This document shows positions 47,601 through 63,153 of a stretch of 64,000 bases of DNA, in pieces. Source of the DNA: an uncultured candidatus Brocadiaceae bacterium. Its GTDB lineage: Bacteria > Planctomycetota > Brocadiia > SM23-32. Each line of letters opens with the position of its first letter. The first letter of the stretch is position 1. The DNA lies in assembly GCA_964421565.1 (NCBI GenBank), contig CAYQXJ010000006.1, positions 154,679-218,678 of the forward strand, in the 5' to 3' direction. The position numbers were made by a program, and so were the translations under genes. Under the pieces are notes generated by a model. It was not told the DNA's origin, ran no database searches, and saw nothing but the letters and a program-made list of their open reading frames with translations.

Positions 47601-48512
47601 CACCTGCTCGTCTTCCCTGCGGAACAGTTGGGCATGCTGCGGGTCGAACACGTCCAGGTCGGTCTTGCCCACGAGCTGTTGGGGTTCGAGGCAAAGGTCC
47701 TTCGCAAAGCGCTCGTTGGCGAACGTGAAGCGCAGGTCCCTGTTTTTCAAGAACACCCGGTCGCCGATGTGGCGCAGCACGGACCTGAGCTCAGCTTCTG
47801 TGCTGCCGAGGGCCTCCTCGGCTTGCCTGTGTTCGGTAATGTCCGTCACCATGCCCAGCAGACCCGCCACCTCGCCTTCTTCGTCGATGACGGGTGTCTT
47901 GACCACTTCCAGCACACGTTCGCCGCGCGGCGTGCGCAGCACGCTCAGGAAGGTGAGGGATTCTTGCGTGCCCAGCACGCGCTGATCTTCCGCCAGATAG
48001 CGCTCTGCCAGTTCCGCGCCGAACAGATCTGCATCCGTCTGCTCCGATATCTGTTCGGCTGTTGTGTCGAGCAGCTCTGCGAAGGCCTGGTTGGCGGTGA
48101 CGTAGACGGATTTCTGATCTTTAAAGAATATGCCACGAGAGACGTTCTCCAGCAGCAGGCGGTTCTTGCGTTCGGTCTCTTCAAGGGCGGCTCGCGAGGC
48201 GTTCTGCAGCAACGAATGGGCAAGAAATGCCCAGAAGACGGGGATCAGGACCTGGGTGGTGTCCGTGAACGTATCGACATTGGCCCAGTTGCCCAGCCAC
48301 TGGAGAGCGTCCCCTCCCGCCTTCAGCCCCATCAGGGCAAGCACGGTGGCGAGTAGGAGGCGCGTGTCCGTGGGGAACCCGCGTCGCCTGCCCAACAGGA
48401 CTATTGCCAGGGCGACAAGGGCCGCCGTCAGCGCAAGAGCGCATGTGGTGCCGACCAGCCACCTCATGGGTGAGCCCCCCTCCGCGGCTGGCCCCCAAAC
48501 GTCCGCCAGCAC
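44682..48512 (-). CDS. Multi-PAS sensory diguanylate cyclase (membrane-anchored, C-terminal GGDEF domain)
   Basis: There are two N-terminal TM helices and at least 6 PAS/PAC-like segments. The C-terminal GGDEF domain carries SLTGLNNRRGF...RIGGDEFAVL (the GGDEF signature). The length is 1276 aa. Confidence 0.8.
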   Translation of the reverse strand: MLADVWGPAAEGGSPMRWLVGTTCALALTAALVALAIVLLGRRRGFPTDTRLLLATVLALMGLKAGGDALQWLGNWANVDTFTDTTQVLIPVFWAFLAHSLLQNASRAALEETERKNRLLLENVSRGIFFKDQKSVYVTANQAFAELLDTTAEQISEQTDADLFGAELAERYLAEDQRVLGTQESLTFLSVLRTPRGERVLEVVKTPVIDEEGEVAGLLGMVTDITEHRQAEEALGSTEAELRSVLRHIGDRVFLKNRDLRFTFANERFAKDLCLEPQQLVGKTDLDVFDPQHAQLFRREDEQVLKGGEPVVTEMTRYDPATDRHRLQRWTKVPICNGREDAVALLAVGRWTEDQRRAEQMLSQWASLSMASDDAVVGLTAEGHIVSWNAGAERIYGYTPGQMQGQPFWCLCPPAEQNSLKELVLSVASGELVRQQETVHLSRDRVPIEVSMSMTPLRGADGGIIGVSVIARDVTARKQAERQLRERERALSTLLSNLPGAAYRCRTDRHWTMEFMSEGCLEITGYRPRQIVDNREVAYGELIVPEDRESVWREVEMALQDDRPFRMTYRITRANGEPRWVWEQGRGVRNDRGDLVALEGFITDITEQRRAEKRLRRSEQRFRLLAETALDGIGICRWDPETNARRLIFCNDRFVEMSGYSRSELEQAEDLNELISFDAGPQERQRTREHLKQGLPCTGTASWRRPDGRENTYAWSATSVRVGNTYHLYCVDRDITDQQRAERALRKSKERYRRTLDALSDAVLVLDRNLRIRIANRALRQWCQQLGVKHRLVGTPFREAFPFLPEERESGLKRMFSTGKPQKDVVTVTVQGQTVTFESRRIPIVEGERVTSILVVVRDLTSQRKAQEEISRIEHEKDAVLDAMEEIVIYCDADLKVQWANRAAAQQAGVALEEIIGRPCHGVWHNSEQPCADCPVVRAMETGEPQQTEMMSDDGRIWAVRGYPVHGPDGEVQGAVDVALDITERRSLEENRAQWGAVVESTDDAIIDATVEGRIVRWNPGAERVYGYCSDEVQGTHMSVLAPLERRAELCQIIEDVASGKRLQQHEFVNVTRGGARINVSLTMSPIKGENGRVTGISAIARDITDHVALREQLINLSLVDSLTGLNNRRGFFHLANQQLKVARRTANEALIIFVDVDDMKWINDTFGHKEGDRALIGTAEVLRSTFRESDILGRIGGDEFAVLALEADQDEAAEILERLSRALEQHNEAAGRDYRLSLSRGVVTCPPDNPVPLEKLMAEADSRMYDHKRSKTRVR

Positions 48513-49184
48513 CAGCAGGCCAGCAACACGGTGGCCCCCAGGTAGCAGGCGTGCTCCAGAAGGTTCAGCACGTCGGCAACCATTACCGCCTCGAGATTGG
48601 TCGCCAGCCAGCTTAGGACGAGCAGCGAGTACGCCATCAGAAAAAGGCGCAGTCCTGCCACCCGGCGGAGCCTATGACGGCTGAGGGCCAGAAAAACGCC
48701 CGTGCCGACGCCCAACAGCAAGGTTAGCATCTCGTTCTGCGACAGCATGGCAAACCGCTAAGATTGCACGATCTTCTTGAATGACAACGCTTTAGTGCGA
48801 CCGGAGGGTGCACGGCGCGCCTCCGGTGCCAGCGTCACCCAAGGGGGTTGCAAGCCGCGTGCCCGCATTGACGGCGCGGCAGTCGCCGGCGAGGAATGCC
48901 CCACGCGCTCCTGCAGAACTATGGGCGCTGCTATGGCGTGGGCAGTGCCCAAAAACCGGGCTGTCCAGGCCGCTGGCAAGCGGCAGCTCCTTACGCTTTT
49001 GCCGTGGCGCAATGCCCGGCCTGCAGCCGCCTCGGCGTCAAGGAAGGCCGTCATGGGGTGAAAAAAGAGCAACAGTCAGCATTCAGATTGCGCCTTGAAA
49101 CCTGTTTGGGATTTGCTATGCTAATCAGAACTGGGAGGATGTACACCATGTCGTTAGCGATTCCGAGCGAGGGGGGAAGTATTG

Positions 49185-50018
49185 ATGGCCCGAGTGGAAG
49201 AAGCCCTGCGCGATTTCGTAGATCGGGAAACTCGCCACGCCGTCTCCGACGTTATGGCGGACCTGCCCGAGCAACTGCGCCAGTTTCGTCGTGAGCTGCG
49301 TGATGTCCACAGAGCGCTCAACCAACTGAGCAGTGAAGTGCGTGGCCTCGCTGCTGCCGGTGCCTTCCGCAGCCCTGGCGGCCCGCAGGATGCCGAATCA
49401 ATGGCGTTTACCGCCGAAGGTCTGAAGTCGCTGCGAGAGCAGTTTGACCTGACCCAGCAGGAACTTGCCCAACTGTTGCAGGTCTCGCCCGTGACCGTCA
49501 CCGCGTGGGAGACCGGCAAGTCTTGCCCGCGTCGTTCGAATCTGGCGCAGATTGCCGCCATGCGCGAAGCCGACCAGGAGGAGATCGACGAGGCACTCGG
49601 CAGGCAACCCGTGCCCGACATCTCCGGCATAGACGTCAAGCGGCTGCGCCGGCGTCTCGGGCTGACGCAGAACGCACTCGCCGAACTGATCGGCGTATCG
49701 GCGGCGGCCGTTACCTCCTGGGAAACCGGTAAGACTATTCCCAGTCGGGACAATCGCCGCGCGCTTGCCGAACTCAGCGAGAAGCCGCTCAGCGAGGTGG
49801 AGGAGGAACTGACGCGCTCGGGCATCATGCTGCCGCATGAAGAGGCCATGTCGCCGGAGGAAATCCGCCAGATCCGCACCGCCGCCGGCCTCTCCCAGCG
49901 AGAGCTCGCCAAGGAGATCGGCGTCTCGGTCAACTCTGTCTCCAACTGGGAGACGGGCCGCACTGCGCCGCGTCGCGCCAGCGTTAAAGAACTGCTGCGC
50001 CTGCGCGAACAATCCTGA
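49185..50018 (+). CDS. Protein with three tandem XRE/Cro-C1-type helix-turn-helix domains
   Basis: There are three internal repeats of LTQxELAxLLxVSxxTVxxWETGKxxPxRxN. They are LTQQELAQLLQVSPVTVTAWETGKSCPRRSN, LTQNALAELIGVSAAAVTSWETGKTIPSRDN and LSQRELAKEIGVSVNSVSNWETGRTAPRRAS. A GAGGGGGGAAG Shine-Dalgarno sequence precedes the ATG at 49185. Confidence 0.7.
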   Translation: MARVEEALRDFVDRETRHAVSDVMADLPEQLRQFRRELRDVHRALNQLSSEVRGLAAAGAFRSPGGPQDAESMAFTAEGLKSLREQFDLTQQELAQLLQVSPVTVTAWETGKSCPRRSNLAQIAAMREADQEEIDEALGRQPVPDISGIDVKRLRRRLGLTQNALAELIGVSAAAVTSWETGKTIPSRDNRRALAELSEKPLSEVEEELTRSGIMLPHEEAMSPEEIRQIRTAAGLSQRELAKEIGVSVNSVSNWETGRTAPRRASVKELLRLREQS

Positions 50019-50144: not shown

Positions 50145-50220
50145 GAGGGCGTAGCTCAGCCGGCAGAGCAACGGACTTTTAATCCGTAGGTCGTGGGTTC
50201 GATCCCCACCGCCCTCACCA
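50145..50220 (+). tRNA. tRNA-Lys (anticodon TTT)
   Basis: The cloverleaf has an acceptor stem GAGGGCG/CGCCCTC, D arm GCTCAGCCGGCAGAGC and anticodon stem-loop ACGGA-CTTTTAA-TCCGT. Anticodon TTT is flanked by T and A. The T arm is GTGGGTTCGATCCCCAC. The discriminator is A, and an encoded CCA follows. Confidence 0.85.
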
Positions 50221-50537
50221 TATGCCACGCCACCGGGCCTGCTGCTCCGCAGCACAGCGAAGCGCCCCGAAGCGCGCCTCGCAACCGTGTCACTGCCCCG
50301 CCCGTCTGGTGCAACCATGCGGTCCCGTCCCATCGCAGAGGGTGTCAGAGCGTCGCGCGAGCAGCACGAGTACAGCCCAATCACAAATGCCGATTCCAAC
50401 CAAGCCCGGCTGTGGCCAGGACATGGGGAGAATGTTGAAGCGTCACGGTGCTTGTGCTATAAAGCCCCTCAGGAGAATAGCTTGCGATCCGACGTCTGCG
50501 CCTGTCGAGGCGTCCGGGCCTGGACCAATGGGACACG

Positions 50538-52433
50538 ATGATCCGCCCCCATCTCATCACCAATCGGGTGCGCCGAGCCGCACTCCGGCCGATTGTGCGG
50601 AAGGTGAACGATCTGGAAGCGCAGACGGCGCGCCTCTCCGACGCTGAACTGCGCCGGTCGGCGCCGCGGCTCAGGGAGTGTCTGAGCCGGGGGGCGGAGT
50701 TGGACGGGCTGATGCCCGAGGCTTTCGCCCTGGTGCGGGAGGCGGCGAAGCGCCAGATTGGCGAACGGCCCTTTGACGTGCAGGTGATGGGCGGCGTTGC
50801 CATGCACCACGGCTGGATCGCCGAGATGCAGACGGGCGAGGGCAAGACGCTGGCCGCCACACTGCCCGCCTTCCTGAATGCGCTGCCGGGCCGCGGCGTT
50901 CATGTAGTCACGGTGAACGACTACTTGGCCAGCCGCGACGCCGAGTGGATGGGCAGCATCTACCGCGCCCTGGGGCTCAGCGTGGGCTGCCTGGTGCACG
51001 ACGTGGGACCGCGCGAGCGTGCAGCGACCTACCGCGCAGATATTACCTACGGCACGAACAAGGAGTTTGCCTTCGATTACCTGCGCGACCAGCTTCGCGC
51101 GCATGCCGCGCGCAACGCTCCGGCCGTCGGCGTGTTCGAACGCCATGCGATGCGCACCAACGCGGGTGGTGGCAAGGTGCAGCGGGGGCATCACTTCGCC
51201 ATCGTCGATGAGGTCGATAGCATTCTGATCGACGAGGCGCGCGTGCCGTTGATCATCAGCGAGCGCGAAGGCGAGGTCTCGCCATGGGCTTCGGCATACA
51301 CTGAGGCGCGCGAGCTGGCGCTAAGGCTGCGGGAAGGGCAGGACTATATTCTGCACGAGGAGGAACGGGGCGTGCAGATGACCGTGCGGGGGATTGAGAG
51401 GGTGCGACAGGCTGCAGCGGGGGGGCGTCCCGGTCGTCCGTTCGAGCACCTGGTGGAACAGGCGCTGCGAGCGGAGCACCTGTTCCAGCGCGATCGTGAA
51501 TACCTGGTGGTGGACGACCACATCTGTATCGTTGACGAGTTCACCGGCCGCCAGATGCCCGATCGCTCGTGGTCACTCGGGCAGCACCAGGCCATCGAGG
51601 CGAAGGAGGGCGTGCCGGTAACCGACGAGAATCGCACCCTGGCATCGGTTACCTTCCAGCGCTACTTCAAGCTCTACGAGAAGCTGGCCGGCATGACGGG
51701 CACGGCCCGCGAATCGTCGGCGGAGTTCAGCAAGGTCTTCGGCCTGCCAGTGGCGGCCGTCCCGACCAACCGGCCGATGCGTCGGCGGCGGATGCCCTGT
51801 CAGGTCTTCGCTACATGGGCGGACAAGTACCAGGCCGTGGTCGAGCGCGTGCGAGAGCTTCACCGGCAAGGGCGCCCCGTCCTCGTGGGTACTCGTTCCG
51901 TACGCCGCAGCGAGGAGCTGAGCAGGCGGTTGAGCGAATGCGGTATAGAGCACAACGTGCTCAACGCGCGCAATCACGCCGCCGAGGCACGGGTCATCGC
52001 GGAGGCCGGGCAGCCCGGCCGCGTCACGATTGCCACGAACCTGGCGGGCCGAGGGGTGGATGTACTGCTCGGACAGGGGGTGGCGCAGGTGGGCGGGCTC
52101 CACGTGCTGGGAACTGAACTGCACGAGGCAAGCCGCATCGACCGCCAGCTCGGGGGGCGAGCCGGCCGCCAGGGCGAGCCCGGCAGTTACGAGTTCTTCC
52201 TGTCACTGGAGGACGATATACTGGGCCGGTGGAGCAAGACGCTGGGAAGTTGGCTGCGGTGCCGAGCGCAGAGGGCAAAGGGGGGCCGCGTCAGCCGGCT
52301 TCACCTGCCCTTCTTTCGGCTGGCCCAGCGGGGCATCGAGCGACGTCACCTGCGGATCCGGGTAGACCTGCTCGAGTACGACGAGCGCCTGGAGGAGATG
52401 AAAGGGAGCCTCGGGGCGCCCGCGTGGGGCTGA
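50538..52433 (+). CDS. SecA-family ATPase lacking the C-terminal scaffold, wing and tail domains (SecA2-like, truncated)
   Basis: The N-terminus FDVQVMGGVAMHHGWIAEMQTGEGKTLAATLPAFLNALPGRGVHVVTVNDYLASRDAEWMG matches SecA NBD1 nearly position for position. DEVDSILIDEA is the DEAD motif. NBD2 (LVGTRSV...TIATNLAGRGVD) and the start of the helical scaffold (SLEDDILGRW...LLEYDERL) follow. The protein then ends at 631 aa, where canonical SecA continues for another ~270 aa. Confidence 0.75.
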   Translation: MIRPHLITNRVRRAALRPIVRKVNDLEAQTARLSDAELRRSAPRLRECLSRGAELDGLMPEAFALVREAAKRQIGERPFDVQVMGGVAMHHGWIAEMQTGEGKTLAATLPAFLNALPGRGVHVVTVNDYLASRDAEWMGSIYRALGLSVGCLVHDVGPRERAATYRADITYGTNKEFAFDYLRDQLRAHAARNAPAVGVFERHAMRTNAGGGKVQRGHHFAIVDEVDSILIDEARVPLIISEREGEVSPWASAYTEARELALRLREGQDYILHEEERGVQMTVRGIERVRQAAAGGRPGRPFEHLVEQALRAEHLFQRDREYLVVDDHICIVDEFTGRQMPDRSWSLGQHQAIEAKEGVPVTDENRTLASVTFQRYFKLYEKLAGMTGTARESSAEFSKVFGLPVAAVPTNRPMRRRRMPCQVFATWADKYQAVVERVRELHRQGRPVLVGTRSVRRSEELSRRLSECGIEHNVLNARNHAAEARVIAEAGQPGRVTIATNLAGRGVDVLLGQGVAQVGGLHVLGTELHEASRIDRQLGGRAGRQGEPGSYEFFLSLEDDILGRWSKTLGSWLRCRAQRAKGGRVSRLHLPFFRLAQRGIERRHLRIRVDLLEYDERLEEMKGSLGAPAWG

Positions 52434-52454
52434 TGGCGCTGCAACAGGGGGGCT

Positions 52455-54635
52455 TCATATGAGGAAGCGCCGATGCAGCATGCGGCGCAGCCGCAGCCAT
52501 ATGCGCCGCCCAATGGTCTGCTCGCCCACGATGAACCTCACTGTGCCTGCGCTGCCGACTGGCAAGGAGCGGGCGTCAGGACCAAGGACGACATCCACTC
52601 TGTACCAGGGCTCCAGGGTTCGCGCGCCCTGGGGGGCCTGAGGGTCCAGCAAAATGGGGCCTCCGGCGGCGCTTGTCAAGGGGGCAGGGGGCGCCTGATG
52701 GGTTGCCGAGGGGTGTATCCGCTCGATGGTGCCCGTGAATATGCGGGCGGGCAGGGCTCGGAATCTGATGCGCGTTCCTCTCACGTCCTCACTCTGAAGC
52801 GCGGCGATATCCGCCGTCTCAACCGCTGCCGTCACGCGGGTCGCCTCCAGGGAGGCGACGGCAAGCACCGGCTCCCCCATGCGCAGGAAGCGTCCGTGAA
52901 CGCGATCGAGGTCGGGCGCGATGACCCTGCCGTCGAACGGCGCATGGATCGCCATGGCGTCCTGGCGCCGCTGCGTGGTTTGGAGGTCCTGCTGCAGGCG
53001 CGACAACCGTTCGCGTTCGACAGTGGCCTGCGTGGGATTGCCCGTTGCCTCGAGCCTGCGGAGTCTCGCTCGCGACTCCTGCACTGCCAGTTCCATGCGA
53101 CGCACTCCATGGTCCAGCAGTTCGTTGCTCAGAGTTGCCAGCAACTGGCCGGCCTCGACCTGCTGGCCATTGCTAACACGCACGTCGGTCAGAAAGCCAG
53201 GCCATTCGGCGCGGAGCATCGCTTGCTCGGCAGGCTCCAGCGCACAGGGCGCCCGCACGGCCGAGTCGATGGGCACCGCTCCGAGCAGCAGCACCACCGC
53301 CGCAACGAGACCTGTGAACACACCGATTGCCCGAGCGCGCACTGGCCGGGTCACCTTGTCGATAAAGATGTACTTGAGCAACTTACTAAATGGATTCAGA
53401 ATCCAGAGTATAGCGACCAGCACAGCCAGGGCTACGCCAAGGGCGAAGAACTTTGAGGCGATCATCAGCAGGATGCCAGTGACTATGAAGCAGCGATAGA
53501 GCGTGGCCAGCACGCCGTAACACAGGAACCACACCTTCTCCCGGGACAAGTCAGTGTTGAGCGCAACGCGTTCACCCACAAGATAGCGCTTGAACAGGTA
53601 CTTCACGTAATCCGTTGAGCGCTGCCTCAGATTGGGGATCTCAATGAGATCGGCCAGGATGTAATAGGCATCGTAGCGCAGCAGCGGATTGCCGTTGAAC
53701 AGCAATGCTGACACGCTGGCGATGAAGATTATGTTGTAGAGTATCGTGCGGATGGTGCCCGGCTCCAGCAGCAGCCAGCCGAAGACTGCCAACGAAGCGA
53801 TGAATAGCTCGACCATCATGCCCGCCGCGCCGACCAGCACCTTCGGCCACTTGCGCGGGAAAGCCCACACCGGCGTCGTATCTACGTAGAGCACGGGCAT
53901 GAAGATCAGGAACATCACGCCCATGCGGTGCACCTCCGCCCCATAGTGCCGGGCGGCGAACGCATGCCCGAATTCGTGACATCCCTTTACCAGCACGAAC
54001 GCCAGGTAGAGATACACAAGGTTGCCCGGGGCCAGGATGCCGTTCGCCCGCGAAGCAAACGCCTCGACGTTGTAGAAGAACGCGAAGAGCGCCGCCCCGA
54101 GCGTCAGCAGCCAGACCACGAACACCTTGCGCGAGAAGACCCACCGAACGTAGGGCAGGGTCGCCCGAAGGAAGCGCTCCGGGTCGATGAGCGGAATGGT
54201 CAGGTACATGAAACTGCTCAGCTTCTGTTTCACGCGCTGCCGACGCTTCTTGCCGGCCCGCTCGACCGTCCAGCGCGCTTCCTCGTCGCCGCTGCTGACG
54301 GTCAGGTTCGCGTGCCGCAGCATGAAGACGAACCCGACCAGGTCGCGGAAGGAAGGCGCCCGGCTGCCGTAAGTCGCCTTCAGCCGGTCGTGGATGGTGC
54401 CAAGGCTTGTCTCGCCGTTGAGCTGTTCCAGTATCTCGCGCTCAACTCTTCCGACACGAAAGTACTGGAGGGTGACGGGGTCCTGCAGCACGAAGTGGAC
54501 CTCACCCCCGAACCGCTGCGGCACGATGTCAGCATCAGGCCGTAGCCGTGGGGTTCGCGTGCGCAAGTGGGGCACGCGGTCCTCAAACTCCAGCTCTGCC
54601 GAAAGGTCGTATTCCGGCGTTTTCGGTCCGAGCAC
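52455..54635 (-). CDS. Fusion protein combining an N-terminal PqqD/RRE-like domain, a peptidase M50 (site-2 protease) membrane domain and a C-terminal HlyD-like periplasmic adaptor domain
   Basis: The N-terminal ~100 aa (VHFVLQDPVTLQYFRVGRVEREILEQLNGETSLGTIHDRL) resemble PqqD-like peptide-binding domains, tentatively. The polytopic region carries HEFGHAFAARHYG (an HExxH zinc motif of M50) and a downstream N..P...D motif. The C-terminal third has HlyD-like coiled-coil and beta-barrel segments (LEATGNPTQATVERERLSRLQQDL...). Confidence 0.65.
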   Translation of the reverse strand: MLGPKTPEYDLSAELEFEDRVPHLRTRTPRLRPDADIVPQRFGGEVHFVLQDPVTLQYFRVGRVEREILEQLNGETSLGTIHDRLKATYGSRAPSFRDLVGFVFMLRHANLTVSSGDEEARWTVERAGKKRRQRVKQKLSSFMYLTIPLIDPERFLRATLPYVRWVFSRKVFVVWLLTLGAALFAFFYNVEAFASRANGILAPGNLVYLYLAFVLVKGCHEFGHAFAARHYGAEVHRMGVMFLIFMPVLYVDTTPVWAFPRKWPKVLVGAAGMMVELFIASLAVFGWLLLEPGTIRTILYNIIFIASVSALLFNGNPLLRYDAYYILADLIEIPNLRQRSTDYVKYLFKRYLVGERVALNTDLSREKVWFLCYGVLATLYRCFIVTGILLMIASKFFALGVALAVLVAILWILNPFSKLLKYIFIDKVTRPVRARAIGVFTGLVAAVVLLLGAVPIDSAVRAPCALEPAEQAMLRAEWPGFLTDVRVSNGQQVEAGQLLATLSNELLDHGVRRMELAVQESRARLRRLEATGNPTQATVERERLSRLQQDLQTTQRRQDAMAIHAPFDGRVIAPDLDRVHGRFLRMGEPVLAVASLEATRVTAAVETADIAALQSEDVRGTRIRFRALPARIFTGTIERIHPSATHQAPPAPLTSAAGGPILLDPQAPQGARTLEPWYRVDVVLGPDARSLPVGSAGTVRFIVGEQTIGRRIWLRLRRMLHRRFLI

Positions 54636-54650
54636 CGTTCACATCCCCAA

Positions 54651-56573
54651 TTACCACCACACGTGCAACCGCACCCAGTCGACCAGTTGTCGCGTTAGCA
54701 CCCATGTTACGTGTCGTCGGCCCACGCGCACCCTGGCCGCCCCCTCCATTCCCGGGCGCAGCGGCCGGCCACTGGCCGGGATTATCGCTTCTGCAATGTA
54801 GTAACTGGCCGCGTCCTGAGTCTCCGGCAACGGGCGCACGCCACCCACTTTGAATTGTATCTCTCGGCCGGGCTGCGCCTTGGTGGTGAAGGTCCCAGGT
54901 TGGCCGGGCTCCACGTACGTCACATCGCCCTGAGCCACCCGCATCTCTAACAGCAGGCGGTCCAGCGGCGCCACCTCCACCAGTTGTTCGCCCATTTGCA
55001 CGGGCCGGCCGATATCCTGGCGCAGGTCGCCGGCTATCACGATGCCCTCAACACGGGCGCGCAGCGTGGTGCGCGCCAGGCGGTCCTCCAGGAGCTGAAC
55101 CTCTGCGTCGAGCGCCTGCAGCCGCGCGCGGGCCTCGGCGTACTGAGCCGTTTTGCCTTCGTCCAGCAGCACCCGTGCTTGCGCCTGTTGGCTGCTGCGG
55201 TTGCTGAGCGCCTCCCGCAGGCGCAACTCCAGCTCGTCTCGCTCGAACTCGACCAGCACCTGGCCCGGTTCCACCGTGTCGCCCGGGCGAACCGGCGCCG
55301 CTTCGATCGTCGCATCGAAGGGCGCGGCATAGACGTACAGTTCCGCCGGCGCCAGACGGCAACTGCCACTCACGCTGAAATGCACCCTTCCGAACACGCC
55401 GAACAGCACCAGCGCGGCGAGCACGACGGCCGCGACCTTGCGCCATGGGTGTTCACGCCCGAAGAGCCACTTGCCGGCGCTCGCCAGCCCGTCAGCGACT
55501 CGCTTCGGCACACCGCGATCATTCTCCAGCGCCAGCCCGAGCACCGGGCCGACCTGCCCGGCCAGAACGTGCACCACCTGCCGTTTCTCTTCGCTGAATG
55601 CCGACTCGCCGAACTCGAACGTCCATACCCCCACCAGCCTCTCATCGCGGCGCAGCGGCACGCTGTGTACGGCCTGCGAGCCGCCGCTTCGCGCCAGCCG
55701 CTCGTGCTGCGGGCAGCGGGTCAACTGGCGGGCGCGTTCCTGATCCGGCGCACCGGCATCGAAGTGGCCCGTTTCGCCACTGACCTGGACCTCGGCCTGC
55801 GCCGCCTGCAGCAATCGGGCGGTATTTGTGCGCCGATCTACGATATCCTCGCCGGAGATTGCGACTACCCGCACCTTGCGGCGGCTGACGAACCCGAGAG
55901 ACACGCGCGCGGCCCCGAGTTGCGAGCGCGCTTTGTCAACCAAGACCTGGGCCATCTGAAGTGCAAGGTCGAACGCGAGCGCCTCTGCCAGGATATCCCA
56001 TGCGCTGCTGAGCGCCCCATAGAGCGCCTGGAAGTGCTCTGCGCGGCTGCTGGCAACTCGCAATGCGCCGAACTGAGCGAGAAGGCTTAGCAGCGCGACG
56101 CCGGCGTCCGAGAGGGCAGGGGCGCCTTCACCTACGACGATGCTCACACAGCCCATGGCGTCGGCCGTAGCCTCCGCCGGGAAGCCGACGGCGACATACG
56201 CCTCGCCTGTCAGCAGCTCGCCTGCCGGCTCGGGGACCCTACGGTAGCACACGATGCGCTGCTGCGCGGTGTCGGCTGCCAGCTCCTTCAACCTCTGCAA
56301 CCACTGGTGGGCCGCTTCGCCGCTGACTTTCAGCAGCAGCTCTGCGGCCAGCGTGAACTCGCCCTCGTCGCCCGGCAGCCAGTAAGCCGCGTACGTCGCG
56401 TCTGCGACGCTTGCCATGGCTTCCAGCAACTCGCGGACGAACTGCTCGGGCTCCACAGCGGCCTCGGACCGTTCGCGGAGCCTCTCGATAAGCGCCAGCA
56501 GCCTCATCCGCGCCGGCTCGGGCTCCGCCGGGGTCCCGGGGCGCTCGTGACCGTGTGGGTCCTGCCGGCTCAC
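54651..56573 (-). CDS. GAF-domain / HlyD-like membrane fusion protein
   Basis: The N-terminal ~330 aa look like GAF-like alpha/beta regions. A single TM helix (VAAVVLAALVLFGVFG) follows. The C-terminus is a HlyD-type adaptor with coiled-coil and lipoyl-like beta-barrel segments (PGQVLVEFERDELELRLREA...RARVEGIVIAGD). Confidence 0.65.
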   Translation of the reverse strand: MSRQDPHGHERPGTPAEPEPARMRLLALIERLRERSEAAVEPEQFVRELLEAMASVADATYAAYWLPGDEGEFTLAAELLLKVSGEAAHQWLQRLKELAADTAQQRIVCYRRVPEPAGELLTGEAYVAVGFPAEATADAMGCVSIVVGEGAPALSDAGVALLSLLAQFGALRVASSRAEHFQALYGALSSAWDILAEALAFDLALQMAQVLVDKARSQLGAARVSLGFVSRRKVRVVAISGEDIVDRRTNTARLLQAAQAEVQVSGETGHFDAGAPDQERARQLTRCPQHERLARSGGSQAVHSVPLRRDERLVGVWTFEFGESAFSEEKRQVVHVLAGQVGPVLGLALENDRGVPKRVADGLASAGKWLFGREHPWRKVAAVVLAALVLFGVFGRVHFSVSGSCRLAPAELYVYAAPFDATIEAAPVRPGDTVEPGQVLVEFERDELELRLREALSNRSSQQAQARVLLDEGKTAQYAEARARLQALDAEVQLLEDRLARTTLRARVEGIVIAGDLRQDIGRPVQMGEQLVEVAPLDRLLLEMRVAQGDVTYVEPGQPGTFTTKAQPGREIQFKVGGVRPLPETQDAASYYIAEAIIPASGRPLRPGMEGAARVRVGRRHVTWVLTRQLVDWVRLHVWW

Positions 56574-56611
56574 CGTGGCCTCCGCTCAAGGGCTCGGCGC
56601 GACGCTCGCCG

Positions 56612-56956
56612 CTACGTGCCCGCCTGCCCCGGGCTGGGGCCAGTGCTGGGCGCCTGCTGGCGCTCTGGCAGTTCGATGACCCCGCGGGCATCCTCGTACC
56701 GTTTCACCAGGTTGCCTAGAGTGATGGCCAATCGCTTGGCCGAGGGGTAGGAGAGTATGACGCGGTTGCTCACCTGGATGTGGACTTCACCCTCTTCGTT
56801 CGGCCCTGCGTTGAAGCCGAAGTTCAGCACAACCTCCTCCGGCGTGCTCGCCACCACGGTGATGTTCGCGTAGTCGAGGTCCACATCCGGGGCATGCAGG
56901 CGCACCTGCCGCTCCTGCTCGGGTCCGCGGGCTTTCTGGTCTTCACTGGTTTGCAT
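56612..56956 (-). CDS. DUF3467-family protein
   Basis: DLDYANITVVASTPEEVVLNFG...VSNRVILSYPSAKRLAITLGNLVKRYEDARGVIELPE matches the DUF3467 pattern. For comparison, the family shows Y(S/A)N...EF(V/I)LDF and ...AKRL...L.....YE. A GGAGG Shine-Dalgarno sequence precedes the ATG at 56956. Confidence 0.65.
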   Translation of the reverse strand: MQTSEDQKARGPEQERQVRLHAPDVDLDYANITVVASTPEEVVLNFGFNAGPNEEGEVHIQVSNRVILSYPSAKRLAITLGNLVKRYEDARGVIELPERQQAPSTGPSPGQAGT

Positions 56957-56976
56957 GCGGCCTCCACATGTGGTTC

Positions 56977-57804
56977 TCAGTCGGTCAGTTGGAACGTCAG
57001 TGTTCCGAAGGTGCCCGCAACGACCGACCCGTCGGGATTCGGCAGGCGCAGCTTCACGCGGTAGGTGCCGCTGGCGGGGTCGGCGACGCTGTCGGCCACC
57101 ACCACGGTGCACTTCAGGCGCTGCTCGGGCCAGCTCTCCAGGGCCAGTGTGGCCTGTGCGCCGGGCTCGATCCGTCCGGCGGTCTCCACGGGCACGTCGG
57201 CGACGACATAGAGGGGGTCCAGCGTCACCAGGCTGAGCACGGGTTGGAGCGGCTCGGCGGCCTCGCCCTCACGGCGGGCTATGCGGAGCACCTGCGCGGC
57301 GTAGGGAGCGCGGATGACCGTCTGCTCCAGGCGCACCCGGTCTCGCTCGGCCGTCAGCTCCGCAATGCGCAGCTCATTCTGCGCGTTCTGGATCGAAAGT
57401 TCGGCCAGGTCCATGTCCAGCTTTGCCCGTTCCAGGTCCGCCTGGCTCGAGACATCTTTCTCGAACAAGTCCAACTCGCGTTCGTACTCCTTCTGCAGCA
57501 GGGTGTGCTGTGCCACGGCGGCCTGGATGCGGTGGCGAGCCGATTCGATATGTGCCATGCTCACGCGCAGTTGGGCCCGCAGCAGGGCATCGTTCAGCCG
57601 TACCAGCTCCTGCCGTTTCTCCACCGGTTCACCTTCTTCGACAAGCACTTCCGTGACTATCCTGCCGGTCTCAGCGGCCACGGCTACTTCGCGATAGGGG
57701 ACCGTCTTGGCGCTTACGGTCACCTCGGCGGCGGCGATGCCTGGCGCAAGCATCAGGACGGCAATGGCGGCCAGCAGGCCGCAGCGGCACTGTTCTCTCG
57801 CCAT
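56977..57804 (-). CDS. HlyD-family periplasmic adaptor (membrane fusion protein)
   Basis: The signal/TM segment is CGLLAAIAVLMLAPGIAAA. A coiled-coil hairpin (LRAQLRVSMAHIESARHRIQ...ELRIAELTAERDRVRLEQTVIRAPYAAQV) and the C-terminal beta domains follow. The ATG at 57804 is preceded by GAGGTGG. Confidence 0.75.
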   Translation of the reverse strand: MAREQCRCGLLAAIAVLMLAPGIAAAEVTVSAKTVPYREVAVAAETGRIVTEVLVEEGEPVEKRQELVRLNDALLRAQLRVSMAHIESARHRIQAAVAQHTLLQKEYERELDLFEKDVSSQADLERAKLDMDLAELSIQNAQNELRIAELTAERDRVRLEQTVIRAPYAAQVLRIARREGEAAEPLQPVLSLVTLDPLYVVADVPVETAGRIEPGAQATLALESWPEQRLKCTVVVADSVADPASGTYRVKLRLPNPDGSVVAGTFGTLTFQLTD

Positions 57805-58010
57805 CGGCAGACCACCTCGCATGCACGGTATCAAGTCGACCACACCTCAGACATTGCGCCACCCCTTACTGCTGTCTTGCGCACGAACTCGGCGCAGAGC
57901 GCGCGGCTTCGCAGCGGCTCGCCACGTGCGACGGCCTCCCGTGCGTCGGGAGGCCGTTTCTATCGTCGCGGTCACGCTACGCCTGTGCCACCGAGCGCGC
58001 GAACAAGGGA

Positions 58011-58463
58011 TCACCCGAAGAGCGAGTAGATTCCCGTCTCCGCAAGCGCGTCGAAGCCCGCATACAGGGCATTGCTGCGGAACACGATGGGCTTCACTAT
58101 CTCGTAAGCGCCGATTCCGTACCCTCCGAAAGCGGAGGCGGCGAAGTCCCCGACGATCTTGACCTTACCGACTGTGCTGCGCCATACGAATCCGTCGGTT
58201 AGCACGAGGTTGAACAGGTCGTAGCCGCCCGGCAACATCGTGTTGACGCCGCCAGCGGTCGCGCCAGCCACCAGCAGGGAGTTGTTGAAGTTTCCGCCGA
58301 CCTTCAGCGATTCAACGCTCCCACTCAGGTAGGTGTCCGCATCGTCACCGCTGCCGCCCGGCAACAGGTCCGCCCCCAGGTTGGCGCCCGCGACAATGCG
58401 TGCGCCGTAGCAGTCGGCCTGTGTTTTGATCTTACCGATGTTGCGCGCCACGATGGTGGCCAT
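58011..58463 (-). CDS. Hypothetical Gly-rich protein of 150 aa, possibly the C-terminal remnant of a larger secreted protein
   Basis: The ORF has strong GC3 bias typical of coding sequence in this genome. It has no convincing Shine-Dalgarno sequence or signal peptide. It sits head-to-head with the truncated TolC fragment. Confidence 0.35.
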   Translation of the reverse strand: MATIVARNIGKIKTQADCYGARIVAGANLGADLLPGGSGDDADTYLSGSVESLKVGGNFNNSLLVAGATAGGVNTMLPGGYDLFNLVLTDGFVWRSTVGKVKIVGDFAASAFGGYGIGAYEIVKPIVFRSNALYAGFDALAETGIYSLFG

Positions 58464-58598
58464 CGTTTCGAACGTTGGCGTTGCCGGCGGGAAGGGCCAG
58501 AGCGAGAAGGTGCCGATCGCACCGGTTTTGAGCATGTCCAGGTCTTCGAGGATTCGCTGGAGCTGGCGCGTCGGCAACTGCGGGACACGCGCGAGCGT

Positions 58599-59483
58599 GT
58601 GAGGGTGGGCAAGATCGCCGAAGGAGAGGTGGCGGCCGCCGAGGCGGAGTTGGCCCGCCGGCGCGAGCAACTGATCAACGCGCGCAGTGACGCCGAGAAG
58701 GCGCGACTGCGACTTTTGCGACTCACCAACCCGCTGTTGGAGGGATTCTGGAGCCGCCAACTGGAACTTCGCGACGAACCGAAGATGCTCGCGCAGCTGG
58801 AAGCCAGCGCCGAGTTGCGCCATCCTCTGGAGGACCCGGTGACGCACGTGCAACTGGCACTGCGCATGCGCCCGGACCTGAATGAGGCACGACTCCAAAT
58901 CAAGCGGGGCGACCTGGAACTGGTCAAGACGCGCAACGGCCTGCTGCCGCGCCTCGACTTCGTGCTGCAGTTGGGCAAGAGCGGGCTGGCGGACGCGTTC
59001 GCGGAGAGCATCGGCGACATCACGCAGGACCATTACGACGCCCTGGCCGGTCTGAACTTCGAGTACCCGCCCCTCAACCGCGCAGCCCGCGCGCGCCACC
59101 GGGCCGCCGTGTTCACTCGCAGCCAGGCCGCCGAGGCTGTGGCGAATCTGGAGCAGTTGGTCTCGCTGGATGTGCGCACGGCGTACGTTGAAGTCGAGAG
59201 GGCGCTGGCGCAAGTGGCCGCCACGGCCGCCACGCGGCGCTTCGGCGAGCAGAACCTCGCCGCAGAGCAGGAGAAGTTTCGAGTGGGGCGGACCAGCTCG
59301 TTCCTGGTCGCCCAGGCGCAACGCGACCTGGTCGCCAGCCGCATTGCGCAGGTCCAGGCCGTAGTCAACTACATGCAGGCGCTCGTCGAGTTCTATCGGC
59401 TGGAAGGTTCACTGCTCGAACGCCGGGGCATCAAGACGCCGGGCGCTGAACCGGTCGACCCCAACCTGCCGGCTGGCGTTTAG
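58599..59483 (+). pseudogene. TolC-like outer-membrane efflux protein, C-terminal half only (N-terminally truncated)
   Basis: 294 aa with typical TolC second-repeat helices (AEAELARRREQLINARSDAEKARLRLL..., LDVRTAYVEVERALAQ..., QAVVNYMQALVEFYRLEG). The upstream in-frame sequence back to the stop at 58212 is Arg-rich and not TolC-like. No other plus-strand ORF encodes the missing first repeat. Confidence 0.55.
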
Positions 59484-59725: not shown

Positions 59726-61615
59726 TCAGTCGCCGTACGAAATCGAGATGTCCCGAACGCTGCCCGGGAAGTCCTCTTGCTCGGCGTAGTCGCCGATCGG
59801 CCCGTAGCCGGTCTGCCTGTAGCCGCCGGCTTCCAGCAGGCCGCACGGGTAGATCGAAAGCGGTCCGTTGGCCCGCCCGGTGCCGACCACATCGGCGTCG
59901 ACTCTGAGCGTGATCGCTCCGGTGGCGTCCAGGCAGCCCTCAACCTCGACGAGGCCGTGGGTCAGCTGCCGGTTGGCGCGCACGACTGTGGTGGTCGTCT
60001 GCAGGGCGTCCCAGCGCAGCGGGGTCTGGACGTCCATCACGCCCATGCACAGCTTGCCCTGTTTGACATAGAGGGAGTAGCCTGCGAACCAACTGCCGTG
60101 GTGCACGATCACCGCCTCGTCGGCCTCGACATGTACCTTCGCCCGAACCGTGATCGGTCGCCCAGCAAAACCGTCCTCCAGGCCGCGGAACCATACGGAC
60201 TCGCCTGGCTCGGGCCGCAGCGTCGCCCCCGGGGGCGGGGAGGAGGAGATGGCCGGGGCCGGATCCTCAGCCAGCCATCCGGCCAGCGACTCCTTCACCT
60301 CGACGTAGTCCGGGTCTTCGGCCAGGTTGACGTGCTCCTGGACATCGTTCTCGTAGTCGTACAGCTCCTCGCTGCCGTCACAGTAGCGGGTGTAGCGCCA
60401 GCGCCGCGTGCGCAGGGACTGATTGTTCGGCCCCAGAAAGGTGCGCGCGGGTTGTTCGCGCTTGGCCTGCTCGCCCGAGAGCAAGCCCCCCAGGCTGACC
60501 CCCGAGAGGCCCGCCACCTCCGGCAGGTCGCAGAGCTCGAGCAGCGTCGGATAGATGTCGATCAGCCCGACGCCCTCGTCGCAGCGATGTTCGGGCGGGT
60601 TCATGCCCGGCGCCCTCATGATGAACGGCACGCGCGCACCCGAGTCCCAAAGGGACCACTTCTTCCAGTGGAAGTGGTCGCCGAGGCTCCAGCCGTTGTC
60701 GCCCCAGAGCACCACGATGGTGTTGTCGGCATACGGGCTCTCGTCCAGCGCATCCAGCACGCGGCCAACGCAGTGATCGGTGAAGCTGATGCAGGCGAGG
60801 TAGGCGTGCAGAACGTCGCGCCAGTAGCCGTGCTCGGTGATCTGGTAGTGCATGCCCTGCTTGGAATCCTGGTAGCCGGCCAGGGCTATCTGCCGGGCGG
60901 CCGGCGGCATGCCGTCCATGTCGTAGGGCCCGGTCGGCGGCAGCGTCAGCGCCTCCCGGTCGTACATGTCGAAGAACCGCTGAGGAGCGATCAGCGGGAC
61001 GTGCGGCCGGAAGAAGCCTGCCGCCACTAAGAACGGTTCGTCGTAGTCCTGACGCAGGCGTTCGACGGCCCAGTCGGCCACCAGCCTGTCGCTGAGTGTC
61101 TCGGACTGGTCATCATCCAGGGGCCCCCAGTGGAAGGCGAACTTATAGTAGCCGTCGACGTGGGTCAGGTCGGGCGCGTGGCGCGAGTGCATGTCGAACT
61201 GCTGACCGTTGAAGACTCCGGCGTTCTCGTCCCACATGCTCTCGCCCCGGACGTCCTGCACGGCCCGCTCGACGCTGTTTCCGTGATCGACCTTGCCGCC
61301 GACCATGGTGCGGTAGCCGTTGCGGCGGAAGTGCAGGGGTATGGGCAGCGCCTCGTCCCTCACCGGCGAAGCCGCGAGGTGGTCGATCAGCAGGTAGCAG
61401 CCCGTTTCGGCGGGGCTGAGCCCGGTCAATATGGCCGTGCGCGAGGGGTTGCAGACCGGCGAGGTGCAGACGGCGTTGGTGAACACGGTGCCCTGCTCGG
61501 CCAGGCGGTCCATGTTCGGAGTCCGGACGTCCGGGTTGGTGTCCATGCAGCCGAGCCAGCCGGTCATATCGTCGATGGCGATGAACAGCACGTTCGGTCG
61601 TTGCGCGTCGATCAT
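59726..61615 (-). CDS. Sulfatase (arylsulfatase/S1 family) with a C-terminal extra domain
   Basis: The N-terminus PNVLFIAIDDM is typical of sulfatases. The formylglycine motif is CTSPVCNPSRTAILTG (C-x-P-x-R). The internal ATG at 61615 was chosen because the longer ORF upstream is Arg/Pro-rich with low complexity. Confidence 0.8.
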   Translation of the reverse strand: MIDAQRPNVLFIAIDDMTGWLGCMDTNPDVRTPNMDRLAEQGTVFTNAVCTSPVCNPSRTAILTGLSPAETGCYLLIDHLAASPVRDEALPIPLHFRRNGYRTMVGGKVDHGNSVERAVQDVRGESMWDENAGVFNGQQFDMHSRHAPDLTHVDGYYKFAFHWGPLDDDQSETLSDRLVADWAVERLRQDYDEPFLVAAGFFRPHVPLIAPQRFFDMYDREALTLPPTGPYDMDGMPPAARQIALAGYQDSKQGMHYQITEHGYWRDVLHAYLACISFTDHCVGRVLDALDESPYADNTIVVLWGDNGWSLGDHFHWKKWSLWDSGARVPFIMRAPGMNPPEHRCDEGVGLIDIYPTLLELCDLPEVAGLSGVSLGGLLSGEQAKREQPARTFLGPNNQSLRTRRWRYTRYCDGSEELYDYENDVQEHVNLAEDPDYVEVKESLAGWLAEDPAPAISSSPPPGATLRPEPGESVWFRGLEDGFAGRPITVRAKVHVEADEAVIVHHGSWFAGYSLYVKQGKLCMGVMDVQTPLRWDALQTTTTVVRANRQLTHGLVEVEGCLDATGAITLRVDADVVGTGRANGPLSIYPCGLLEAGGYRQTGYGPIGDYAEQEDFPGSVRDISISYGD

Positions 61616-63081
61616 TCTGCGCTTCCTTTTCTGATCTCGTCGGTTACGGCGAGGGCCGGCTTCGGGCTGAGGTCCTCGCGCAGCAGGCCCTGGCCGGCCG
61701 CCCAGGGGAGTCGGTATAGCTCGCACGGCGTGCCCAGCAGGTAGTCGTGCCAGAGGATCGGCGCGTCGGTCGTCGCCCAGAAAGTCGCATTCTCGATCCA
61801 CGGCAGCGCGCGGAACAGCCGCAGGAAGCTGCGCACGTAGTCGGCCTGCACCTCCTCGTTCCACGGACGGCCCCGCCAGGTCTTGAGGTAGGGCTCCATC
61901 GGCCGGCCGTCGATCCGCACGGAAGGCTGCGCCCCCGAGGGTGGCGTCAGTTCGGTGATGTGCAGCGGCAGGCCGAATCGTTCGTGCCAGTACCGACCCA
62001 CCCGGCGCAGGCTGAACAGGTTCTCGGGCATGTGGTATTGCAGGCCGAGCAGGTCCGGCTCGACCCCGCGGTCGATGCACCGCTCGATGAACTCCGCGAT
62101 CGTGATTGCCTGCTTGCCGTCGCGTAAGCGGCTGGAATACCAGACCTCGTCCTCGGAGTAGAAGCTGATCATCTGCCGCACGTGCGGCGCCTCCTCCCGG
62201 CAGATGCGGGAGACCATCTCCGTCTCCTCAAGGAGCTGCTCGACGGACAGATCGACCGACGCAGCCTGCACCGGCTCGTTGATCAGCTCCACCGCGTCCA
62301 GCTCGCCGCCGATTCGCTTCAGGATGGTGCGGACGCGCCGCGCGCAGCGCTCCTTCAGTTCCTCGAAGCTCACCTCCGGTATCCAGCCGCGTTTCTCGAA
62401 CCCGCTGTGCCAGACCATGGCGTGGCCCTTCATGCCCATGCCATGCTTACGGCCCCACGCCACCAGCTCGTCGAGCACGTCGTAGCGGGGATTGTCCCTT
62501 TCGACCTCGAGGACCCCCCAGGTGAGGGGAACGGTGGCGTAGTCGAAGCGTCCGGCGAAGTGCTCATCCCACGCCTCACGCGCGTTGTGCAGCCCCTTGG
62601 TGTTGATGCCGAGCTGCAGCTCGGTCGGGCCGCGCAGGCGCCATTCGACCTCCGCCTCGACCAGCCGCTCGCCGGCCCAGAAGGCCCCTTCGAGGGCCTT
62701 GTCCACTCGGCCGGCGTCGAGCGTGGCTCGGACTTCGGAGATCGTCCTGGCTACCGACGGGGAGGGCGGCATGCCCTCGTCCTCCAGTTGCCCCGCCAGC
62801 TCTTCGACGAGGCGGACGCGCGTCCGGCAAGCCTCGGCCCGAAAGTTGATCGGGCCGTCATCCTCGGCGAAGCCGCGCCCTCCGTTGTCCGCCAGCCAGC
62901 GCCCACCCTCCGCGCCCGGCACCTCGACCGACGCGTAGAGTGCCGCCGATTCCTCCGCGCAGGTCAGTACGACCACGTCCTCCGACTCCTCCAGCGAGGA
63001 GGGGATCGGTTCGCAGGGTCCAGCGTAGGCGTGAACGGCAGCGGGCTCGTCGAGCGAAGCCGAGTGGATTTCCAGCCGCAT
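61612..63081 (-). CDS. Glycoside hydrolase family 10-like (endo-xylanase fold) protein
   Basis: GHAMVWHSGFEKRGW resembles the GH10 RGHTLVWHSQ motif, and LHITELT resembles the catalytic nucleophile ITELD motif. Its start overlaps the sulfatase stop (ATGA). Confidence 0.65.
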   Translation of the reverse strand: MRLEIHSASLDEPAAVHAYAGPCEPIPSSLEESEDVVVLTCAEESAALYASVEVPGAEGGRWLADNGGRGFAEDDGPINFRAEACRTRVRLVEELAGQLEDEGMPPSPSVARTISEVRATLDAGRVDKALEGAFWAGERLVEAEVEWRLRGPTELQLGINTKGLHNAREAWDEHFAGRFDYATVPLTWGVLEVERDNPRYDVLDELVAWGRKHGMGMKGHAMVWHSGFEKRGWIPEVSFEELKERCARRVRTILKRIGGELDAVELINEPVQAASVDLSVEQLLEETEMVSRICREEAPHVRQMISFYSEDEVWYSSRLRDGKQAITIAEFIERCIDRGVEPDLLGLQYHMPENLFSLRRVGRYWHERFGLPLHITELTPPSGAQPSVRIDGRPMEPYLKTWRGRPWNEEVQADYVRSFLRLFRALPWIENATFWATTDAPILWHDYLLGTPCELYRLPWAAGQGLLREDLSPKPALAVTDEIRKGSAE

Positions 63082-63153
63082 CTGTGTTCCTCCAAAGTTT
63101 CAAGAAGGGATGACTTGTGCGCCGGCGGAGCGACGGCGGCCGCGGGCTCCAGG

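Follow-up and report, generated by a model that had tools for sequence, protein, structure and literature searches.

A candidate SecA- and site-2 protease-based export machine for giant LEPR-XLL proteins and its apparent degraded copy in an uncultured Brocadiaceae genome

The subject of this study is a 64,000-nucleotide stretch of contig CAYQXJ010000006.1 from an uncultured candidatus Brocadiaceae bacterium (hereafter the window), and within it a gene cluster encoding a short SecA-like ATPase, a three-part fusion of an RRE domain, a peptidase M50 (site-2 protease) domain and an HlyD-type adaptor (hereafter M50-HlyD), a GAF-HlyD fusion, a DUF3467 protein and a small HlyD-type adaptor. On balance, our analyses favour the interpretation of this cluster as a degraded version of a conserved machine that spans the envelope and exports and processes giant proteins bearing an N-terminal LEPR-XLL leader. 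In related loci the parts, whose topology is described below, co-occur almost universally, adjoin genes for LEPR-XLL giants and have no ABC, RND or MFS pump beside them. Together, this topology, the missing pumps and the linkage to the giant cargo suggest a leader-guided, TolC-dependent machine in which export and processing take place in one step.

LEPR-XLL proteins include the largest open reading frames (ORFs) known in prokaryotes. A preprint of March 2026 on the Chlorochromatium symbiosis described epibiont proteins of 36,806 and 20,647 amino acids (aa) with LEPRxLL N-termini and without known transport signals, for which its authors proposed a "sap-like" type I secretion system (T1SS) formed from sapC, tolC and an hlyD; a horizontally acquired secA is mentioned in the same work, with no link made to the giants. 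The cluster analysed here is probably the missing export route of LEPR-XLL giants, and it provides a concrete, genetically testable candidate for giant export that occurs in culturable bacteria.

Conservation of the cluster and its linkage to LEPR-XLL giants

One genome per GTDB species was scanned, 80 loci were kept (83 non-redundant loci overall), and the six-frame ORFs of all loci were searched with the window proteins. Relatives of M50-HlyD amounted to 4,371 cluster representatives at 50% identity (E ≤ 1e-30), nearly all of about 715 aa, with more than 3,000 matches in a 90%-clustered database and carriers in at least 544 GTDB species; the closest named relatives belong to metagenome-assembled genomes (MAGs) of Planctomycetota. 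The 83 loci come from at least 10 phyla or classes, those kept being from Planctomycetota, Verrucomicrobiota, Nitrospira, Myxococcota, Desulfobacterota, Rokubacteria, one Flavobacteriales MAG, and Alpha-, Beta- and Gammaproteobacteria. Cultured carriers include Pseudomonas, Vibrio, Marinobacter, Billgrantia, Shimia and Sedimentitalea, as well as Thalassospira, Methylosinus and roseobacters.

The neighbourhood proved strongly conserved among these relatives, in agreement with the first-pass annotation of the window, which had read the locus as a dedicated system joining leader recognition, an intramembrane protease and export adaptors, and had proposed the comparison of neighbourhoods as a check. 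The GAF-HlyD gene lies directly upstream of M50-HlyD in 71 of the 72 loci with enough sequence, the lone exception being an ORF-calling artefact, and a third small membrane fusion protein (MFP) adaptor is found in 37 of 40. That annotation had noted an ATPase near the operon, which stands, and had treated the SecA-like protein as merely a neighbour, which does not: the short SecA gene is an adjacent core member of the cluster in 65 of 71 loci, on the same strand in 63, and in RefSeq gene models it overlaps the M50-HlyD gene by 4-8 bp. The convergent orientation seen in the window is a local rearrangement peculiar to a small clade formed by the window and the two loci L001 and L008.

The earlier statement that no ABC or RND pump accompanies the adaptors holds both for the window and for the surroundings of the core in related loci. 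No ORF of the 64-kb window combines the ABC ATPase motifs (Walker A plus LSGGQ), no ABC ATPase adjoins the core in the 83 loci (two distant chance cases only), no ABC transporter is annotated by RefSeq in the operon of five plasmid loci, and no RND or MFS pump was found adjacent to the cluster.

When the non-core ORFs were clustered, the most recurrent neighbour was a family of giant proteins. Wherever the N-terminus of the flanking large ORF is visible (12 loci and two plasmids), the motif lE.LEPRlLLsAD follows basic residues about 15-100 positions into the protein and is accompanied neither by a transmembrane (TM) segment nor by a Sec-type hydrophobic core. This motif corresponds to the NCBIfam "LEPR-XLL domain" (NF012209), whose cut-off of 17 bits is exceeded by the cargo of the Marinobacter locus L084 (26.2 bits); in L001 and L008, the planctomycete C11 proteins carry the variant LSLEPLE(R/Q)RLLLQAD. 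An ORF of at least 1,000 aa is directly adjacent in 22 of the 36 loci with 5 kb or more on both sides, and the five finished plasmids whose context is complete all have a LEPR-XLL gene as the immediate upstream neighbour of the cluster. Four of the encoded proteins are giants of 8,148-12,918 aa, from plasmids of cultured marine and soil bacteria, and the gene of the fifth (Thalassospira), which RefSeq also names for LEPR-XLL, runs past the fetched stretch. RefSeq names the proteins of Pontibrevibacter (10,603 aa) and Pseudosulfitobacter (12,918 aa) "LEPR-XLL domain-containing protein". The motif of the remaining two was found in this analysis: TLEPRVLLNAD at residue 40 of the Methylosinus cargo (8,847 aa, named for its LamG domain), and QLEPRLLLAAD just upstream of the annotated ATG of the Alisedimentitalea cargo (8,148 aa). 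The latter site lies at about 2226-2340 on the minus strand of plasmid NZ_CP123586.1 (L091), where the start of the "calcium-binding protein" was mis-called and the protein mis-named.

The C-terminal 1,500 residues of six cargo proteins are rich in RTX calcium-binding repeats. The NCBIfam T1SS C-terminal target domain was matched in none of these six regions, a missing match being weak evidence. A distant Azospirillum branch of the system (25% identity, no SecA) adjoins a DUF4347 protein and TolC; in L037 and L084 the motif is followed by a DUF4347 domain.

Two other gene types recur beside the cluster. Genes for PAS-GGDEF-EAL proteins occur near the core in 11 loci, hinting at control by cyclic di-GMP; in the window a 1,276-aa multi-PAS protein with GGDEF is encoded at 44682-48512 on the minus strand, 2 kb from the SecA-like gene, a pairing that may be due to chance. 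SapC-family genes lie inside or beside the cluster in six loci (e.g. L094 16260-17081, L020 9054-9923 and L091 2558-3355), once between the M50-HlyD and SecA-like genes, and the Chlorochromatium giants of the 2026 preprint likewise have a sapC neighbour.

Core proteins and truncated genes of the window

The genes and domains named by the first-pass annotation are present at or near the positions it gave, with Pfam and NCBIfam in agreement. In the M50-HlyD fusion, a hydropathy scan placed seven TM segments within residues 166-454, which makes the first 160 residues cytoplasmic and the last 270 periplasmic. Its parts are thus a cytoplasmic RRE (about residues 30-110; 54306-54548), a seven-TM M50 domain (residues 160-454; 53274-54158) with HEFGH at 53964-53978, and a periplasmic adaptor with an alpha-hairpin (residues 455-726; 52458-53273). 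The M50 domain has HExxH and NxxPxxxxD in a multi-TM core of site-2 protease fold, and an alignment of 18 homologues, with identities as low as 34%, shows no variation in either HEFGH (residues 220-224) or the second site-2 protease motif, N..NPLLRYD (314-322). The AlphaFold model computed from this alignment reached a mean predicted local distance difference test (pLDDT) score of 80. The RRE/PqqD-like domain that had been proposed for the N-terminus is marginal by sequence alone (Pfam PqqD, E 0.009; profile against PqqD in the PDB, E 0.019) and is matched by fold in the model, with a three-stranded sheet followed by a three-helix winged-helix that resembles the RREs of lasso peptides in complex with their leaders. 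The C-terminal domain agrees with an HlyD-type MFP as defined for type I secretion and has MacA and EmrA as its best structural matches. No model of NCBIfam release 20 was passed by any of four core proteins; homologues of the fusion carry the JGI name "putative peptide zinc metalloprotease protein".

The short SecA-like ATPase contains nucleotide-binding domain 1 (NBD1), the preprotein cross-linking domain (PPXD) and NBD2 (SecA_DEAD, E 3e-115), with no TM segment detected by a TM scan. The reported lack of C-terminal parts was borne out by comparison with solved SecA structures (E 1e-109 to 1e-161): the protein aligns to residues 23-606 of 841 of Bacillus subtilis SecA and 16-652 of 871 of Thermotoga maritima SecA, stopping at the first turns of the scaffold helix, and so has no wing domain, two-helix finger or C-terminal tail. 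It scores under the cut-off of all NCBIfam SecA and SecA2 models. Sixty-two family members from related loci have a median length of 631 aa and end about 7 residues beyond the C-terminus of the window protein, and in at least 90% of them Walker A (TGEGKT), Walker B (DEvDS) and the arginine finger (GRxxRQG) are conserved. Because of this uniform length and these conserved motifs, we regard the short SecA as a distinct clade, predicted to be ATPase-competent and consistently lacking the three C-terminal elements. RefSeq naming of the family is inconsistent: "prepilin peptidase" in two plasmids and "DEAD/DEAH box helicase" in another (L093 16222-18138, L094 17074-19098 and L092 22139-24124), and "SecA" elsewhere. 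Pfam finds SecA_DEAD, PP_bind and P-loop_SecA in the three misnamed proteins, and the misnaming is systematic.

The GAF-HlyD fusion consists of about 380 cytoplasmic residues including the GAF domain, a single TM segment (residues 380-398) and a periplasmic adaptor. The small adaptor exceeds the RND_mfp cut-off (137 against 94.9 bits), bears a hydrophobic segment at residues 21-39 that is either an N-terminal signal or an anchor, and would measure 288 aa if started at the GTG at 57843. DUF3467 (PF11950) was recovered with 56.3 bits against a cut-off of 25; the domain assignment of the earlier annotation therefore stood and its longer ORF did not, the true gene being that at 56612-56956. Its model comprises four beta-strands and a long C-terminal helix (pLDDT 69). 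A SecB-like identity was tried for this protein and failed, with no significant structural match.

Beyond the small adaptor, the cluster is truncated. The ORF at 58011-58463 (extending to 58535; 150-174 codons), previously described as a small Gly-rich protein, is not a gene of its own. It aligns, with E-values of 2e-14 to 2e-15, to residues 1720-1910 of a 1934-aa Peptidase_C11/FG-GAP protein encoded at the same position in L001, a locus 62% identical to the window, and it also matches the corresponding protein of L008; it has no Pfam or NCBIfam match. As judged from these alignments, the ORF is a C-terminal remnant that lacks the N-terminal ~1,060-1,720 residues of the cargo protein, leader included. 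The TolC fragment, correctly reported as present, is the other stump of the same deletion. Its ORF starts at a GTG at 58599 (294 aa) and its homology at 58533; by tblastn it corresponds, at 63% identity, to residues 211-514 of the 514-aa OEP of L008 (a locus 68% identical to the window), and residues 1-210, with the signal peptide and the first OEP repeat, are gone. What is left contains one Pfam OEP repeat and covers positions 153-407 of 414 in the NCBIfam TolC profile; having a single repeat and no signal peptide, this half TolC cannot form a channel. A tblastn search of the window for the N-terminal half or for a second TolC returned only 58533-59471.

Both L001 and L008 show the gene order of the window, namely OEP (divergent), large C11 protein, HlyD, DUF3467, GAF-HlyD, M50-HlyD and SecA (convergent), and carry an intact TolC gene and a LEPR-type Peptidase_C11 cargo exactly where the window has its two stumps. 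It follows from this correspondence that one deletion, of some 4.5-6.5 kb by comparison with L008 and L001, removed the divergent promoter region shared by the cargo and TolC genes, together with the 5' part of each. An assembly error was considered as the source of the stumps and rejected, the identical junction having been assembled independently from three separate sequencing runs (contigs L006, L007 and L089), which makes the deletion a real one in that population. One run, SRR7048227, holds both the deleted cluster (L006) and a sister cluster of 62% identity whose 1,934-aa cargo is intact (L002). The LEPR motif occurs in no frame of the window, because the N-terminal part of the cargo was deleted. 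The window copy is a remnant without cargo and without TolC, and its five intact genes are orphaned, being either in decay or at work with partners encoded elsewhere.

Proposed mechanism and alternative explanations

The mechanism that we propose is drawn from homology and gene linkage. The cargo, without a Sec-type hydrophobic signal, would stay unfolded in the cytoplasm, where the DUF3467 protein may serve as a small adaptor or chaperone, and its leader would be bound by the cytoplasmic RRE of M50-HlyD, by analogy with the RRE domains that bind the leaders of ribosomally synthesized and post-translationally modified peptides (RiPPs). The short SecA, with its preprotein clamp and DEAD motor, would push the N-terminus, and the rest of the chain after it, into an inner-membrane assembly built from the seven-TM M50 domains and the TM anchors of the adaptors, and the M50 active site would cut off the leader. 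The three adaptor modules might form a periplasmic tunnel, their alpha-hairpins docking on a TolC-family channel, and the RTX repeats of the cargo could fold with calcium outside the cell, stopping back-sliding. Export is probably gated by the GAF domain and by the frequent PAS-GGDEF-EAL and SapC neighbours. In such a machine the SecA motor would play the part of the type I ABC transporter, and RRE-M50 that of the C39 peptidase domain of peptidase-containing ABC exporters.

Each component has known counterparts from which the cluster departs. Like type I secretion (HlyBD-TolC, LapBCE, MpIBP), it combines alpha-hairpin adaptors and, in part of the loci, a TolC-family factor with very large, RTX adhesin-like substrates that lack a Sec signal and are encoded beside the apparatus; unlike it, the cluster has no ABC transporter, its predicted energiser being the short SecA and its membrane part a site-2 protease-adaptor fusion, with three different adaptors instead of one and a recognisable conserved signal that is N-terminal (LEPR-XLL) rather than C-terminal. 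The short SecA shares with SecA and SecA2 the NBD1-PPXD-NBD2 motor and all ATPase motifs, and its similarity to housekeeping SecA is about that of SecA2 proteins, but it stops after NBD2, without the two-helix finger that inserts into SecY, the wing or the tail, and its operon partners are adaptor and protease genes rather than SecY2 or Asp proteins. RRE-M50 peptidases of RiPP pathways (daptide MpaP-type, YydH/LiaK) and, as functional analogues, peptidase-containing ABC exporters also join a leader-binding domain to a membrane leader protease coupled to export; the fusion differs from them in its C-terminal adaptor, its SecA-like instead of ABC partner, its sub-cut-off scores and a likely substrate of thousands of residues. 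Compared with the site-2 proteases SpoIVFB, RseP and MJ0392, it lacks PDZ and CBS domains and has an RRE in front, an adaptor behind and seven TM helices. Finally, the envelope-spanning logic of adaptor plus TolC is that of the tripartite pumps (MacAB-TolC, EmrAB-TolC, AcrAB-TolC), whose inner-membrane energisers, unlike that of the cluster, are of the ABC, MFS or RND type; a 2021 Chem Rev review of tripartite systems lists ABC, RND and MFS energisers only (PMC8277102).

We raise, tentatively, the further possibility of a new class of bacterial secretion system, TolC-dependent, in which a short-SecA engine and an RRE-site-2 protease-adaptor fusion replace the ABC transporter, and LEPR-XLL giants of 8,000 to over 36,000 aa are exported N-terminus first with removal of the leader. 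In line with the failure of the first-pass annotation to recognise a described system, full-text searches found no paper describing the cluster, their scope being open-access papers and bioRxiv, so that a description elsewhere is possible. If correct, the proposal would add a fourth inner-membrane engine for tripartite systems to ABC, RND and MFS, reveal a new role for the SecA motor independent of SecYEG, and show that RREs recognise the leaders of giant proteins as well as those of small RiPPs; the widespread misnaming of the SecA-like protein would be corrected too.

Several points weigh against the interpretation as an export machine. What forms the inner-membrane pore is a matter of inference, as are binding, cleavage and ATP-driven translocation, and we know of no site-2 protease acting as a protein-conducting channel. 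The adjacency of giant genes could reflect processing or anchoring instead of export. No SecA-like gene is adjacent in L003, L036, L049, L075, L084, Thalassospira and the distant Azospirillum branch, where the ATPase must be dispensable, encoded elsewhere or replaced. Only about one in four well-flanked loci has a DUF3467 gene within 10 kb, and the same holds for OEP/TolC (OEP within the locus in 9 of 36; intact genes in L001, L003, L005, L008 and others), and the DUF3467 model has no convincing or significant relative in structure comparison. Lastly, with neither cargo nor functional TolC in the window copy, function is unreadable from this genome alone.

As to the SecA-less variants themselves, the list also includes L096 and L098; several have a longer third adaptor (466-516 aa), with a weak, sub-threshold match to the SPOR domain in L084, and the second adaptor of the distant Azospirillum branch is without the long GAF region.

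The main competing explanation, which we consider unlikely, is that the cluster processes, anchors or releases giants that cross the inner membrane by other means, through a T1SS or Sec encoded elsewhere. The LEPR-XLL region would then be cleaved and the giant tethered or released at a TolC-adaptor scaffold, following a logic like that of LapG/LapD control of LapA or of sortase-like systems, with the short SecA only targeting or holding the N-terminus. M50 proteases normally cleave and do not transport, and both catalytic motifs are conserved here; the RTX repeats of the cargo are typical of substrates of ABC-type T1SS; the SecA-like gene is missing from some loci; and GGDEF-EAL genes recur nearby, as in Lap systems. 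However, no ABC exporter adjoins any of the 83 loci, the six cargo C-terminal regions gave no match to the T1SS target domain, the cargo N-terminus has neither a TM segment nor a Sec-type core by which it might be placed in the membrane, and three adaptors, TolC and a translocation ATPase are more than a tether needs.

A second alternative, the maturation and export of a small RiPP- or bacteriocin-like peptide, in which the RRE binds a short precursor, M50 cuts its leader and the adaptors export the product, seems very improbable. It draws on the resemblance of the RRE fold to leader-bound lasso-peptide RREs and on the best NCBIfam match of the fusion, the daptide biosynthesis M50 protease NF041824 (E 7e-49), YydH/LiaK being matched as well. 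The daptide match, however, reaches 167 bits, far under the cut-off of 300, and the fusion scores 35 bits against NF058609 (cut-off 225). Moreover, the neighbourhoods contain no recurrent modifying enzymes or conserved short ORFs, and what recurs in them is a giant protein with a conserved N-terminal leader-like motif. Neither interval of the window in which a short precursor ORF had been suspected offers one: 57805-58010 shows no conservation with L001 or L008, whichever frame is used, its only ORF being an Arg-rich shadow ORF, and in 58464-58598 the part 58464-58544 belongs to the cargo remnant. A 53-aa ORF of L008 has no family match.

More improbable still is that the cluster serves regulated intramembrane proteolysis (e.g. 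cleavage of an anti-sigma factor) or efflux with a pump encoded elsewhere, the giant linkage being incidental: the M50 family does include RseP and SpoIVFB, and GAF does suggest signalling, but no conserved sigma/anti-sigma pair and no pump gene adjoin the cluster, and the LEPR-XLL linkage extends across distant phyla and to five of five finished plasmids.

The interpretation as an export machine leaves the first-pass reading partly supported: it was right in spirit but wrong in suggesting a short peptide or an anti-sigma factor, since relatives encode a very large LEPR-XLL protein at the adjoining locus, and it misjudged what SecA, the Gly-rich protein and TolC are.

Layout of the window and neighbouring features

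The region has a G+C content of about 65%, and its features are listed in Table 1. The minus-strand genes converge on the plus-strand SecA-like gene, and the TolC-family ORF diverges from the cargo-remnant ORF.

Table 1. Positions of the cluster and adjoining features, numbered from the first letter of the window.
Feature	Position	Strand	Basis
tRNA-Lys(UUU)	50145-50220	+	tRNA search
Short SecA-like ATPase, 631 aa	50538-52433	+	Pfam SecA_DEAD, SecA_PP_bind, P-loop_SecA
RRE(PqqD-fold)-M50 site-2 protease-HlyD/MFP fusion, 726 aa	52455-54635	-	
GAF-HlyD fusion, 640 aa	54651-56573	-	Pfam GAF, HlyD_3, HlyD_D23
DUF3467 protein, 114 aa, cytoplasmic	56612-56956	-	Pfam PF11950
Small periplasmic adaptor (HlyD/RND_mfp type), 275 aa	56977-57804	-	NCBIfam RND_mfp
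Cargo-gene C-terminal remnant	58011-58544	-	BLASTP and tblastn to L001, L008
3' part of TolC-family outer-membrane factor gene	58533-59483	+	Pfam OEP, NCBIfam TolC, tblastn
Deletion junction, two truncated divergent genes abutting	58533-58545	.	ends of both homologies meet

A simple scan of 57700-58800 found no promoter or terminator. A G+C-rich hairpin, ACGGCCTCCCG-tgcgt-CGGGAGGCCGT, lies at 57931-57957, in the gap that separates the cargo remnant from the small HlyD gene; lacking a T-run, it escaped that scan. It may act as a terminator or attenuator within the operon, and a similar hairpin occupies the equivalent position in L008.

The adjacency of tRNA-Lys, to which the first-pass annotation had drawn attention, is not kept in relatives, and the tRNA was accordingly rejected both as a component of the system and as an island boundary. 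Just upstream of it, at 49182-50018, the plus strand encodes a 278-aa protein that contains three Xre-type HTH_3 domains in tandem. Beyond the TolC stump, the minus strand of 59726-63918 holds genes for a sulfatase, a GH10 glycoside hydrolase and a glycyl-radical (PFL-like) enzyme, with Pfam assignments taken from the identical contig L089; these constitute typical planctomycete polysaccharide-degradation content, unrelated to the cluster.

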